Origin: a virus
Reading direction: 5' to 3' (one strand)
Virus record (IMG/VR): IMGVR_UViG_3300017589_000061
Coordinates: 73,367-137,366 of that record
DNA length: 64,000 nucleotides
Both the position numbers and the translations under genes were made by a program. A model generated the notes under the pieces. It did no database searches. It saw nothing but the letters and a program-made list of their open reading frames with translations, and was not told where the DNA came from. The stretch's first letter is position 1. Each line of letters starts with the position of its first letter. This document shows, one piece after another, positions 3,577-64,000 of the stretch.

Positions 3577-3630
3577 ATTGAAATTTCAACGTTTAAAATT
3601 GTAAAGATTATGATAAAATGAGATTTTTAT
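3577..3630. repeat. Composite site: B + 22 bp + A (reversed order)
   Basis: ATTGAAATTTCAAC (3577-3590); ATAAAA-TGAGAT-TTTTAT (3613-3630). Confidence 0.85.
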
Positions 3631-32027: not shown

Positions 32028-32071
32028 GTTGAAATTTCAACGCCGTAAAAGTGATAAAATGTGGTTTTTAT
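32028..32071. repeat. Composite site: B + 12 bp + A (reversed order)
   Basis: GTTGAAATTTCAAC (32028-32041); GATAAAA-TGTGGT-TTTTATC. Confidence 0.9.
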
Positions 32072-51867: not shown

Positions 51868-51905
51868 TTTTATCTCCTAATTTTTGATTTTTATATTAAA
51901 AAAGT

Positions 51906-51949
51906 GTTGAAATTCCAACACTATAATTCGGATAAAATGTGACTTTTAT
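51906..51949. repeat. Composite site (A + 12 bp + B on the - strand) containing the integrase stop codon
   Basis: GTTGAAATTCCAAC (51906-51919); GATAAAA-TGTGAC-TTTTAT (A = 51932-51949); stop codon 51946-51948. Confidence 0.9.
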
Positions 51950-59985: not shown

Positions 59986-60014
59986 CTTTTATTATCTCCT
60001 ATTTTAATTTAATT

Positions 60015-61640
60015 TTAAATTGAATTGTTTAGTGCGGTTTTCAAATTATCAAAATACCAAGCATATATATCATCGTTCGATTTGACATTTAAACAAGCAC
60101 TTGCAACTTGTCCTTTAATTTGGTTAATTGCAGTACAAGCTTGAAGAAAAATCCAAGCATAAAAATCTTTGCCTTTTGAAATATATGTTGAATCTGTTGT
60201 AAATGAATAATTCGATAAACCATTAATAGCTCTTATTTCATTTATTCTATTACAGAAATTTAACCATTCTCCAGCAGATACATTGAATCCTATTCCTGAA
60301 GTTTTAGGTATTTGCCATACCCATGGTTCTATTGCTAGTAATGATACTATTACGACATTACTATAATTGGAATATAGATTATTAACCGATGATAAAACCC
60401 TTATTTTATATTTATCATAATTATCGAAAGTGATAGTTAAACTTGTACTTGTGGTTCTACCTTTTATATACCAGTTTTCATCTGATGCTTTGCTTGCAAA
60501 AACTGTATAAGTTGCACCAGAAACAGAACTCCACGAAATTAAGGCAGATTTATCTCCACTTTTAACAGCAGTTAAATTGCTTGGAGTAGATGGATGAGAA
60601 CTTGAAATGTTAGTATTCCATACGGAATAACAGTTTTGTGACCATGATGTAGGATTTGAACCTCCACGTGTAGGAGCTAAAACCCCGCAACCCCAATCGT
60701 AAGGAATATAACAAAGTCCGTTTGCACCCCAATCAGTTCCCCAAGAATTGTGAGCTATCCAATGTGCTTTTCCATTCTTAGTTGTTAATCCTATTAACGC
60801 AATAGAGTGACTTACTCCAGAATAAGAATTAGGTTGAGGAACTATTCCATCTGAACCAATGCTATAAAAATTATTTGGTATTTTAAAATTAAACATAAAA
60901 TATCCATAATTTCTAATAGCGGATGCCACACCTTCTGTATCATAAAAATCTACATTTCTATAACCATCAAATGCTTGTAAAACAGCATTATTTTTCGCAT
61001 ATGAATCAGAGTTATTATAAATGTATTTTGATTCTTCAATTAATTTAGAGTTAAAATTAGATTCAACTAATTCCCATCTAGGAGAACCCAAAGTACAACA
61101 ATTAACAATTGCATCTTTGAAATACATTCCTTGTTCGTTTGGTAAACCCCCATTACCATATATATAAGAAACGCTATAACTTTCGTATGTGACACCTATT
61201 TGTTTTGCTTTGAAAATATCCATCGCAGTAGACAATGACATAGCAACACAACTTCCTGCACGTCCTTGGCTTTTAATTTTAGTATATATAGATGGAGATA
61301 TAGTTCCTATTGGTTGTGAAATTGAATCGGTTGTAAAAGCATTACGACCTAATGAATAATTAACACCACCTTGTCTTGCTATAACTTCTAATTCATAATC
61401 AGTCGCAGGTGTAACATAATTATATCCTAAATATTCGTCATCCTTAAAATTAATCAAAAATGTTAACCAAGTTGAGTTAACAAAACTACTCCAATTATAT
61501 ATCAAAGTGTTATTTTGATATATTTTAAAAGTAAATGAATCATATTTATTAGCTGGAGTTTGTAACCCTTGAACATATACGCTAAATGAAATAGAAGTAA
61601 GATTTGTTACTAAAAAACTAGCCATTAATCTCCACCTCAA
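60015..61640 (-). CDS. Papain-like (C1) cysteine peptidase with FN3-like domain
   Basis: SQGRAGSCVA (Gln/Cys), HSIALIG (His), HNSWGTDWG.NG (Asn); PSTPSNL...ISW FN3 motif. Confidence 0.8.
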   Translation of the reverse strand: MRWRLMASFLVTNLTSISFSVYVQGLQTPANKYDSFTFKIYQNNTLIYNWSSFVNSTWLTFLINFKDDEYLGYNYVTPATDYELEVIARQGGVNYSLGRNAFTTDSISQPIGTISPSIYTKIKSQGRAGSCVAMSLSTAMDIFKAKQIGVTYESYSVSYIYGNGGLPNEQGMYFKDAIVNCCTLGSPRWELVESNFNSKLIEESKYIYNNSDSYAKNNAVLQAFDGYRNVDFYDTEGVASAIRNYGYFMFNFKIPNNFYSIGSDGIVPQPNSYSGVSHSIALIGLTTKNGKAHWIAHNSWGTDWGANGLCYIPYDWGCGVLAPTRGGSNPTSWSQNCYSVWNTNISSSHPSTPSNLTAVKSGDKSALISWSSVSGATYTVFASKASDENWYIKGRTTSTSLTITFDNYDKYKIRVLSSVNNLYSNYSNVVIVSLLAIEPWVWQIPKTSGIGFNVSAGEWLNFCNRINEIRAINGLSNYSFTTDSTYISKGKDFYAWIFLQACTAINQIKGQVASACLNVKSNDDIYAWYFDNLKTALNNSI

Positions 61641-62010
61641 CTACTTTGGGTATATTAAATTTACCTATACCTCCACTTTTATAATTTTTAATTTTCATTT
61701 CACTACTTAATTCTGCTGTAAAAACTTGGAATTGTGGTAATACTTTGCAATTAATTTTTATCACTTTGTCACCACTTGTGGTTAATCGAGCAAAAATGGT
61801 GTAATATTTATTTTCTTCTAAATTATCAAACGATACAACACTAGAATAATCTAAATCACTTTGATTTATATTTGTTTCTTTATATATTAATCCATCTTTG
61901 GATATTTCAAATTTTTTATAATTTTGATATGTATTTTCTAATCCTGCAATAACTACTGATATACCACATCCTACATTCTGATACTTTACAGGCAATAAGT
62001 ATTCATTCAA
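61618..62010 (-). CDS. Hypothetical protein
   Basis: Start re-placed at TTG 62010 after GGGGTG; the longer track ORF runs into intron domains V/VI. Confidence 0.55.
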   Translation of the reverse strand: MNEYLLPVKYQNVGCGISVVIAGLENTYQNYKKFEISKDGLIYKETNINQSDLDYSSVVSFDNLEENKYYTIFARLTTSGDKVIKINCKVLPQFQVFTAELSSEMKIKNYKSGGIGKFNIPKVVEVEING

Positions 62011-62030
62011 TTTTATCACCCCTATTAATC

Positions 62031-62044
62031 GTTGAAATCTCAAC
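62031..62044. repeat. B box of a composite site whose A site is split by the intron
   Basis: GTTGAAATCTCAAC; exon junction reads TTTTA|T then 22 bp to B on the - strand. Confidence 0.8.
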
Positions 62045-62067
62045 GTTTGTTTTATAAGATTACACAA

Positions 62068-63995
62068 ATCGAGTAGGAGGTAATTAATTATTTTAATTAC
62101 CGTCCTCTCACACCACCGTACGTACCGTTCGGTATACGGCGGTTCAATAGAATTTAACATTTAGAAATTTAACATTTAGATGTGTATATTTTAGTTAAAG
62201 ATACTAATCCGGCTTTTTCAAGTTTGGCATTAGTAATAGAAGTTGCTAAGATAGGGCTATTGGATATTCTCCAATACCCTTTTCTTGTATTAGCAAATTC
62301 CCATGACTTTTGTTTAGAAATTCCAAGTTTTTGTAAATTATTAAATTTCGTACTAACTTTCTTCCATTGTTTCCAATAACACATTCTAATTCTTCGTCTT
62401 AGCCATTTATCAATGCTTTTCATCCAGAATTTCATATCAGCCAGTTTGAAATAATTTATCCAACCTACGACTAATTGCTTAATCTTTTTATAGGTCGTTT
62501 CGATATTTCCAATTTTGCTTCTACCTGTTAATAGCTTTAGCTTAGCCTTAAGTTTTCTTATTGACTTTTCATGTACCTTCATTCTAATTTCGTCTTCTTT
62601 CCTGTAAAAGGTATACCCCAAGAACTTACATTCCCATGGTCTTTCCACTTTACTTTTATCAGTGTTAACTCTCAATTTAAGGTCTTGTTCAATATATTTT
62701 GTAATACTTTTCATTACTCTGTCAGCTGCTTTCTTGCTTTTAACATATATATTGCAGTCATCTGCATATCTTGCAAATTTTAGACCTCTTTTGGTCAGTT
62801 CCTTATCAAGTTCATTAAGCATTATGTTGCTTAATAATGGTGATAAATTTCCACCTTGGGGTACGCCTAATGTCGTCGCATTGACAACTCCATTTATCAT
62901 TACCCCTACATTAAGATATTTTCTGATAAGAGAGATTACTCTTATATCTTTGATTTCTTTGTAAACCAATCCTATTAATATATCATGATTTACGGTGTCA
63001 AAATATGAAGCTAAGTCAATATCTACTAACCAAGTATAACCTTCATTCATATACTCTTGGCACCTTCTCAAGGCATCATGTGCACTTCTGTTTGGCCTGA
63101 AACCAAAACTGTTATCTGAAAATGTCTTTTCGAATATTGGGCTTAGTACTTGTGCTATTGATTGTTGTACTACTCTATCTACAACTGTTGGTATCCCAAG
63201 TTGTCTCTTCTTCCCGTTATCTTTTGGTATTTCTACCCTTCTAACAGGTAATGGGGCATATGTCCCATCAAGCAATGATTGTCTTAAGTTTGCACCATTT
63301 TCTTTAAGATACGATAGAAGTTCATCCGTCGTTAATCCATCAATCCCATGGCTTCCTTTATTCTTCACTACTCTTTTAAATGCCTCATTCATATTGTTTC
63401 TGTGAAGAATTTTCTCTAACAGATTGCTTGTATACACATTTCTGTCGTTTTGTTTCCTATCAGACGTCAATGAAATACTCGGCGCTTTCCCATTATCCTT
63501 AAGTTCCACTTTGCTTTCATGGGAGTAACCTTCTATATGAAGTTGTCTGCTTTCTGCGTATTTCTTTGTTCCTTTCAATTCTTCAAAACCTCCTATTGTT
63601 CAGTCCTTCCTAAATGTCGTCGACTCCATTTAGTACTATGACCTCTGCTGACTTCTCATGTCTCAGCTATACATCACTGTATAGGTTGTTATTTCTAGAT
63701 TCATATCCATAACGTACACACGAGACCTCCCCAGGTAAGGACGACCGCCTTCATCTCATCTATCTGCCATATTTACTGCATACACTTCGGGTAGTATTGG
63801 ACTTCGTTTTGTTTAGCAAACTCATCCAGTGTACACAGCCTTATATATGGTTCGTGTTCCTCAGACCGAGACTTTGCCTCCGACTTCCTTCAGATTCCAC
63901 CTCACGATGGACACCCTTGTCTTTGGCTAATGGTTGCTACTACCAAGCCCCATAACGGACTTTCACCGTCAAGCTGTCGCCCATGCTGGGCACAC
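62068..63995 (-). mobile_element. Complete group IIC intron (about 1.93 kb)
   Basis: 5' end GTGTGCCCAGCATGGGCG at 63995; domain V GAACCGCCGTATACCGAACGGTACGTACGGTGGT (CGC triad); domain VI ends CCTCCTACTCGAT at 62068. Confidence 0.92.
62169..63578 (-). CDS. ltrA: Group II intron reverse transcriptase/maturase, no endonuclease domain
   Basis: RQLGIPTVVDR, GFRPNRS, PQGGNLSP, RYADD, FLGY, GWINYF; no HNH at the C-terminus. Confidence 0.95.
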   Translation of the reverse strand: MKGTKKYAESRQLHIEGYSHESKVELKDNGKAPSISLTSDRKQNDRNVYTSNLLEKILHRNNMNEAFKRVVKNKGSHGIDGLTTDELLSYLKENGANLRQSLLDGTYAPLPVRRVEIPKDNGKKRQLGIPTVVDRVVQQSIAQVLSPIFEKTFSDNSFGFRPNRSAHDALRRCQEYMNEGYTWLVDIDLASYFDTVNHDILIGLVYKEIKDIRVISLIRKYLNVGVMINGVVNATTLGVPQGGNLSPLLSNIMLNELDKELTKRGLKFARYADDCNIYVKSKKAADRVMKSITKYIEQDLKLRVNTDKSKVERPWECKFLGYTFYRKEDEIRMKVHEKSIRKLKAKLKLLTGRSKIGNIETTYKKIKQLVVGWINYFKLADMKFWMKSIDKWLRRRIRMCYWKQWKKVSTKFNNLQKLGISKQKSWEFANTRKGYWRISNSPILATSITNAKLEKAGLVSLTKIYTSKC

Positions 63996-64000
63996 TAAAA

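Follow-up and report, generated by a model that had tools for sequence, protein, structure and literature searches.

The window analysed here is the last 64,000 nt (73,367-137,366) of the IMG/VR virus record IMGVR_UViG_3300017589_000061, a phage sequence of 137,366 bp, and close to its end it carries a minus-strand intron of group IIC (bacterial class C). The same genome contains repeated copies of an inverted repeat, ATAAAA-N6-TTTTAT (hereafter the A site), and of a palindrome, GTTGAAATTTCAAC (the B box). A first-pass annotation of the window had proposed that the intron was inserted precisely into an A site, in parallel with the IIC introns of integron attC sites. We consider it highly likely, instead, that a GC-rich, terminator-like hairpin was recognised together with the sequence TTTA/T (the slash marks the insertion point), and that the A site was a bystander.

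The intron follows a terminator-like hairpin

The first 99 nt of the record are identical to its last 99 (window 63902-64000 corresponds to record 1-99). Since this terminal repeat falls within the intron, it most likely arose when a circular or permuted genome was assembled with overlapping ends, and does not mark a physical end of the genome. The record ends overlap by 99 bp, and therefore the sequence past window position 64000 can be read from record position 100; the start of the same record (L002) was used as this continuation. Read in gene sense, the 5' exon, of which the window includes the final 5 nt, consists of the stop codon of a gene of 211 amino acids (aa), 22 nt, the hairpin AGGGCAGTT-TTATC-AACTGCCCT and TTTA, after which the intron begins. 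The features of the insertion site are as follows.

62031-62044, minus strand: B box beside the intron, GTTGAGATTTCAAC, differing from the palindrome at one position (pattern scans)
62045-62066, minus strand: spacer of 22 nt between the rebuilt TTTTAT and the B box (sequence)
62067, minus strand: first base of the 3' exon, T, presumed intron-binding site 3 (IBS3); a T stands here in 15 of 23 readable homologues
62068-63995, minus strand: group IIC intron, 1928 nt, GTGTG...CTACTCGAT (Rfam D1-D4 and domain V/VI models, sequence, empty site of the intron-less contig X3)
63812-63815, minus strand: exon-binding site 1 (EBS1), 5'-UAAA-3' (intron nt 181-184), in the loop GC-UAAA-CAAAAC (covariation with the exon in homologues)
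63996-63999, minus strand: IBS1, TTTA, the final four bases of the 5' exon, complementary to EBS1
64000, minus strand: last base of the terminator stem, whose hairpin lies beyond the window at L002 121-99 (window 64022-64000) (terminal overlap, sequence, terminator scan, fold as single-stranded DNA)

A pattern scan identified a terminator-like hairpin of 9 pairs, 5 of them GC, and this is the only terminator-like site in L002 1-1599 (mean of 0.5 in shuffled sequences). Folded as single-stranded DNA (ssDNA), the hairpin reaches -9.4 kcal/mol (z -5.1), and none of 200 shuffles folds as well. Judged from their form, hairpin and T run can be taken as an ordinary intrinsic terminator. The first-pass annotation had expected the second arm of an A site on the plus strand beyond the window, as N6 followed by TTTTAT or TTTTAA at about 64007-64012. 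However, the plus strand at 64001-64021 is GGGCAGTTGATAAAACTGCCC, with TTGATA at 64007-64012.

Homologous introns share the hairpin and the EBS1 pairing

To define the target of this intron lineage, we used 51 IMG/VR loci encoding relatives of the intron-encoded protein (IEP), of which 31 reach at least 39% identity and 25 have a 5' junction that could be set. The six loci left out of these 31 (L011, L023, L029, L030, L032 and L033) have a 5' end that lies outside the locus or could not be located; for L013 the junction was placed 4 nt too early, with the hairpin present either way. In all 25 homologues a DNA hairpin of -6.1 to -19.6 kcal/mol ends 0-10 nt before the junction, and at least four T occur within the last 8 nt before it in 23 of them. 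The copy on plasmid p330 of Clostridium felsineum (L056) likewise stands behind a hairpin and T run (-9.6 kcal/mol). In this phage, then, an ordinary-looking GC-rich terminator without a second arm precedes the intron, and all homologues with a set junction stand behind hairpins, which is the outcome that the first-pass annotation had itself named as contrary to its proposal. IIC introns are described as inserting at intrinsic terminators and, in a smaller fraction, at attC sites (PMC4424553; PMC12584367).

The exon pairing could be assigned by covariation. In a domain I alignment of 16 introns, the four bases NNNN of the loop GC-NNNN-CAAAAC, which follow a conserved GC, are complementary at all four positions to the final four bases of the exon in 13 introns. 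Over the whole column 61 of 64 positions are paired, whereas non-self combinations average 2.15 of 4. The EBS1 of the phage intron, UAAA, pairs at four of four positions with its IBS1, UUUA. Mapping this pairing and tabulating homologous sites had been suggested as checks on A-site insertion; the homologous sites with a set junction are all of the terminator-hairpin type.

Removal of the intron joins TTTTA (minus strand 64000-63996) to T (62067) and so rebuilds TTTTAT, with the B box 22 bp further on, exactly as the first-pass annotation had read it. However, a T run, IBS1 TTTA and IBS3 T would come together at any terminator that this intron enters, and therefore an A site cannot be deduced from the rebuilt hexamer by itself.

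Structure of the intron and lineage of its protein

The ribozyme and the protein comprise the following parts.

62068-62144, minus strand: domains V and VI, the domain VI stem with a bulged A (Rfam Intron_gpII, 47.8 bits; sequence)
62169-63578, minus strand: IEP, 469 aa, reverse transcriptase (RT) and maturase, YADD motif, no endonuclease (En) domain (Pfam RVT_1, 5.1e-44; GIIM, 2.8e-16)
63603-63688, minus strand: ribozyme D1-D4 segment, Rfam group-II-D1D4-1 (75.6 bits)
63740-63911, minus strand: ribozyme domain I core, Rfam group-II-D1D4-3 (159 bits, model positions 1-170 of 170)

All three Rfam models are matched on the minus strand above their gathering scores and over their full lengths. 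The intron begins with GTGTG at 63995 and ends with CTACTCGAT at 62068. In the empty site of X3, an intron-less contig described below, TTTA is directly followed by TTGTGT, which confirms these boundaries independently; the class and ends given by the first-pass annotation are thereby upheld. Domain V is almost identical across 25 homologues. The genome has a single copy of the intron, which lies in sense with the genes on both sides. The element appears to be a conventional class C intron and, to judge from its sequence, is probably still functional.

The reading frame of the IEP is open over its 469 aa and sits in domain IV. Pfam detects RVT_1 and GIIM and nothing else in it; class C IEPs are all described as lacking the En domain (PMC4424553). 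Among solved structures, the best relatives are the GsI-IIC RT (6ar1, 1.2e-136) and a IIC RT/maturase (7uim, 8.5e-128), whereas structures of other classes match far more weakly (the IIA protein LtrA, 2.1e-49; 6me0, 4.6e-38). The N-terminus of the IEP (63420-63578, minus strand) is about 50 aa longer than in the solved IIC RTs, and their alignment begins at residue 50-53. This extension is probably real, because the closest relatives (L003, L004 and L056) share it.

A tblastn search of plasmids gave as nearest named relative the intron of C. felsineum p330 (NZ_CP096984.1, ltrA WP_250931451.1), with 66% identity over residues 1-465. The same search found copies with 43-45% IEP identity in class 1 integrons of Klebsiella and Leclercia plasmids (L057, L058 and L059), antisense to the resistance cassettes; by this context they are IIC-attC introns. 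We placed the IEP on a FastTree phylogeny of 40 IEPs (38 relatives) with Shimodaira-Hasegawa (SH)-like support, for which the reference set was the collected relatives and not all intron classes. The phage IEP joins L056 (support 95-96) and then L003 (94-98) within a clade of 16 rows (99), whereas the three integron introns form a separate clade (100) that excludes it. On this tree, a check that the first-pass annotation had suggested, the IEP thus groups with terminator-type IIC introns and not with the integron IIC-attC introns.

Intron-less relatives show an ancestral A site in the same hairpin

Intron-less alleles, whose search had been another suggested check, could be recovered from four sources. 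X1, X2 and X3 are Logan contigs from three runs of three studies; they cover the 211-aa gene, run past it without entering an intron and then diverge from the record. L062 is a contig of a metagenome-assembled genome that encodes a 57%-identical relative of the 211-aa protein and was found by searching genome contigs with the profile of this gene. In gene sense, they read as follows.

X3: AGGGCAGTT-GATAA-AACTGCTCT-TTTATTGTGT...
X1: AGGGCAGTT-GATAA-AACCGCTCT-TTTATTATG...
X2: AGGGCAGGT-GATAA-ATCTGCTCT-TTTATTA...
L062: AGGGCAGTT-GATAA-AACTGTTCT-TTTTTTATTGAGATTTCAAT

The terminator-like hairpin is conserved in the intron-less relatives, and in L062 it is followed by a plain T run. The same text contains G-ATAAAA-N6-TTTTAT: the A site is exact (12/12) in X1 and X3, whereas X2 and L062 match it at 11 of 12 positions. 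The 22 nt that follow in X3 have AAAC as their last bases, like the 22 nt before the B box of the phage. Because the intron-less relatives read ATAAAA-N6-TTTTAT, exactly or with one mismatch, the insertion site was an A site ancestrally. The proposed insertion into an A site is therefore borne out for the ancestral site, but the genome that carries the intron keeps the right arm only; likewise, the intron-less alleles display the expected A site, but in the same GC hairpin.

In the intron-carrying genome, the 12 nt preceding TTTTAT are TATCAA-CTGCCC, and the place of the left arm, TATCAA, matches it at 2 of 6 positions. The loop of the hairpin there, TTATC (L002 108-112), is the reverse complement of the GATAA found in the four relatives (L062 1915-1919; X1-X3), and the stem contains one compensating change that now makes it perfect. 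The loop difference looks like a small hairpin-loop inversion. A loop TTATC instead of GATAA keeps the hairpin and erases the left arm of the A site, and the predicted second arm is consequently absent.

A megablast of the phage collection with 60000-64000 gave no match, IMG/VR single-protein searches returned no relative of either flanking gene, and neither IMG/VR nor the metagenome contigs contained an exact copy of the 5'-exon or 3'-exon string. The profile of the 211-aa gene found one 46%-identical relative (L060), in which both the terminator behind the gene and the next gene are different, as well as an N-terminal-domain match (L061) and, in genome contigs, four domain-only matches. None of the Logan contigs spans the exon-intron junction of the phage, and parts that they leave uncovered prove nothing. 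A local alignment of the phage 3' exon to L062 was spurious and was discarded. In L062, a B-like palindrome, ATTGAGATTTCAAT, lies directly after the T run without a 22-nt spacer (1929-1950), and a good sigma-70-type promoter (TTGACA-17-TATAAT) occurs 50 nt further on (1994-2022).

A sites and B boxes of the phage

The 137-kb genome has 27 exact copies of the A site and no copy in which N5 or N7 replaces N6; a further 49 sites have one mismatch, which gives 76 at up to one mismatch. With up to three mismatches, the B-box pattern has 49 matches in the window against 11.2 +/- 3.4 in shuffled sequences, and none of 100 shuffles reaches 49. Both motifs are beyond chance. Among the 24 B boxes of the genome with up to two mismatches, 17 have an A site at 12, 16, 17 or 22 bp, on either side. 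The distance is 22 bp in 11 of them, 12 bp in 4 and 16-17 bp in the other 2. The statement that 22 bp is the commonest spacing was thus correct. The B box by the intron is one of the seven without a full A-site partner. The same A and B motifs are present in L054 and L062. Examples of A/B pairs in the window lie at 785-828, 3577-3630, 32028-32071 and 51906-51949.

As ssDNA, 11 ordinary A sites fold with only -1.0 to -5.3 kcal/mol, and a cut at TTTTA/T in an A-site hairpin would lie inside the 3' arm and not after the stem. When the 76 sites were read in both directions, none had a GC stem in the register of the intron site; six weak stem matches among them are AT-rich or have 2 mismatches and long loops. 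The suggestion that the A-site inverted repeat is itself the hairpin used by the intron finds no support in these values.

The stop codon of the upstream gene often lies within the left arm of an A site. The possibility that the A site is part of a promoter (extended -10, TGnTAAAAT) was considered on the flanks of the 76 sites, where T occurs in 34 and G in 21; the TG enrichment is weak. At 51900-51925 (minus strand), the B box forms the core of a longer hairpin, AGTGTTGG-aatt-TCAACACT, which is followed by a T run and looks like a terminator.

Mechanism of insertion and alternative explanations

We propose that reverse splicing brought the intron into the phage genome, in sense orientation, immediately 3' of the GC-rich terminator hairpin that follows the 211-aa gene. 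Its ribonucleoprotein (RNP) would have recognised the hairpin as ssDNA together with TTTA/T, as described for IIC introns (PMC4424553; PMC12584367; PMC4748821). The T tail of the hairpin doubles as the right arm of a phage A site, so that the A site merely supplied TTTA/T at the foot of the real hairpin. This site is the only A site found in the foot of a GC hairpin.

The opposite view, that the lineage targets the cassette-boundary inverted repeats of the phage as ssDNA hairpins and would be a phage analogue of the IIC-attC introns, draws on the four intron-less relatives, where the site is ATAAAA-N6-TTTTAT or one mismatch off, on the position of TTTTA/T at the commonest distance from a B box, and on the match of TTTA/T to EBS1. 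However, a single site is occupied against 27 exact and 49 one-mismatch A sites, and it is the one that lies in a GC hairpin, with -9.4 kcal/mol against the much weaker folds of ordinary A sites and with a cut that in an A-site hairpin would fall within the stem. Moreover, the nearest relatives (L003 and L056) and all 25 homologues with a set junction stand at hairpins that are not A sites, the IEP falls outside the integron clade, and the intron lies in sense. Related IEPs were found in none of the three records with the same A/B motifs (L062, L054 and L055), a weak result in that two of these are fragments. Taken together, these observations make A-site targeting very unlikely. At the other extreme, TTTTAT and its 22-bp distance could be a pure coincidence, the hexamer being the T tail of a terminator that never was an A site. 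The hexamer does follow from T run, IBS1 and IBS3, TTTTAT is common (0.0032 per strand position), the left arm matches at 2 of 6 positions only, and at one other place (genome 82674, minus side) a B box has a lone TTTTAT at a distance of 22 bp. This is contradicted by the relatives, with their full or nearly full A sites, and by the other B boxes with up to one mismatch, 13 of 14 of which have an A-site partner, and we regard such a coincidence as extremely improbable.

Several points nevertheless weigh against recognition of the hairpin with the A site as a bystander. The relatives have an exact or nearly exact A site at the corresponding place, and the intron was inserted 22 bp from a B box. 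This coincidence is not trivial, and with one insertion alone the RNP may still have a preference for the A-site sequence. The terminator function of the hairpin is deduced from its form only. The covariation search for EBS3 gave at least four alignment columns that fit equally well (10/11) and hence no unique EBS3. The X1-X3 alleles are known only as a 30-nt loose-end consensus of single contigs, and the assignment of lineage comes from a FastTree phylogeny, with SH-like support and a reference set short of all intron classes. Finally, unoccupied hairpins with a TTT(T)A/T tail also exist in the genome; because they are empty as well, the single-copy status of the intron does not discriminate between hairpin and A-site readings.

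A separate question is whether this copy has become a relic, stranded in the genome and unable to splice or move. Its single copy would fit a relic; RNA runs contained at most 0.07 of the sampled words, too little to bear on expression. Against this, the reading frame is open over 469 aa with YADD, three Rfam models match over their full length, domain V is the same as in relatives and EBS1 still pairs with IBS1 at all four positions; a relic is thus unlikely. A bolder extension would be that a IIC sublineage lands repeatedly in A sites that overlap a hairpin across this clade of anaerobe phages, so that phage gene-boundary sites would form a third natural target class beside terminators and attC, with the flipped loop as a footprint of ssDNA extrusion in vivo; we give this idea little credence.

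Comparison with known group IIC introns

B.h.I1 and O.i.I1 are terminator-targeting IIC introns. The phage intron resembles these two and GsI-IIC in its ribozyme models, in an RT/maturase that lacks an endonuclease domain, in its place a few nt past a GC hairpin with T run, in its sense orientation and in a 4-nt EBS1-IBS1 pairing. It differs from them by its location in a 137-kb phage genome and by an IEP whose N-terminus extends about 50 aa beyond that of the solved IIC RTs. The C. felsineum p330 intron has the closest named IEP, is its sister on the tree and also stands behind a hairpin and T run; however, it resides in another host replicon, has another 5' exon (IBS1 TATT) and has no A/B motifs nearby. 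One published phage IIC intron is described behind a rho-independent terminator (PMC12350094), and by this description it resembles the present one in kind of element and in place in a phage. The intron reported here is therefore a new case of a known kind, since terminator-seeking IIC introns have already been reported in phages.

The IIC-attC introns (S.ma.I2 and relatives, among them L057, L058 and L059) have a class C ribozyme and RT with 43-45% IEP identity, and their target, a folded inverted repeat at a gene-cassette boundary, is like the site studied here. However, they form a clade of their own (support 100) and lie antisense to the cassettes, whereas the phage intron lies in sense behind a perfect GC stem with no integron involved. 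In PMC3001079, IIC-attC introns are described in the bottom strand of attC, opposite to the cassettes. The parallel drawn by the first-pass annotation consequently fails, and its correction is the main value of this analysis. In addition, the analysis provides a IIC intron that seems intact and lies in sense in a large phage of anaerobic habitats, and for which sister alleles without the intron can be compared.

Consequences for the locus and its neighbourhood

The insertion parts the A-site remnant from its B box by 1.9 kb. Should the phased pairs of A site and B box work at the DNA level, this one would be disabled, and loss of the left arm through the loop flip would then be tolerated. If the pair is a regulatory or recombination site, the locus would amount to a naturally occurring knock-out of one such copy. 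Transcripts ending at the hairpin would contain no intron, and read-through transcripts could splice it out. Such a "safe" place behind a terminator is described as usual for IIC introns (PMC4748821).

In runs X1-X4, short contigs of high depth match the first 94 nt of the intron (L002 1-94) at 88-99% and then enter other 5' exons. Related IIC introns are therefore abundant elsewhere in these metagenomes, in further genomes from digesters, sludge and fermentation.

The neighbour upstream of the intron is the 211-aa gene, whose product contains a Cu_amine_oxidN1 ("stalk") domain. The gene downstream of the intron is the following.

61618-62010, minus strand: 130-aa gene without a Pfam family, ribosome-binding site AGGGGTGA, start codon TTG at 62010 (sequence, open reading frame list, Pfam)

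This gene is followed by one for a 541-aa protein with a Peptidase_C1 (papain-family) domain (60015-61640, minus strand), and a tail-fibre-like repeat protein is encoded upstream of the 211-aa gene. With the papain-family protein on one side and the tail-fibre-like protein on the other, the intron would lie in the late, structural part of the phage genome.

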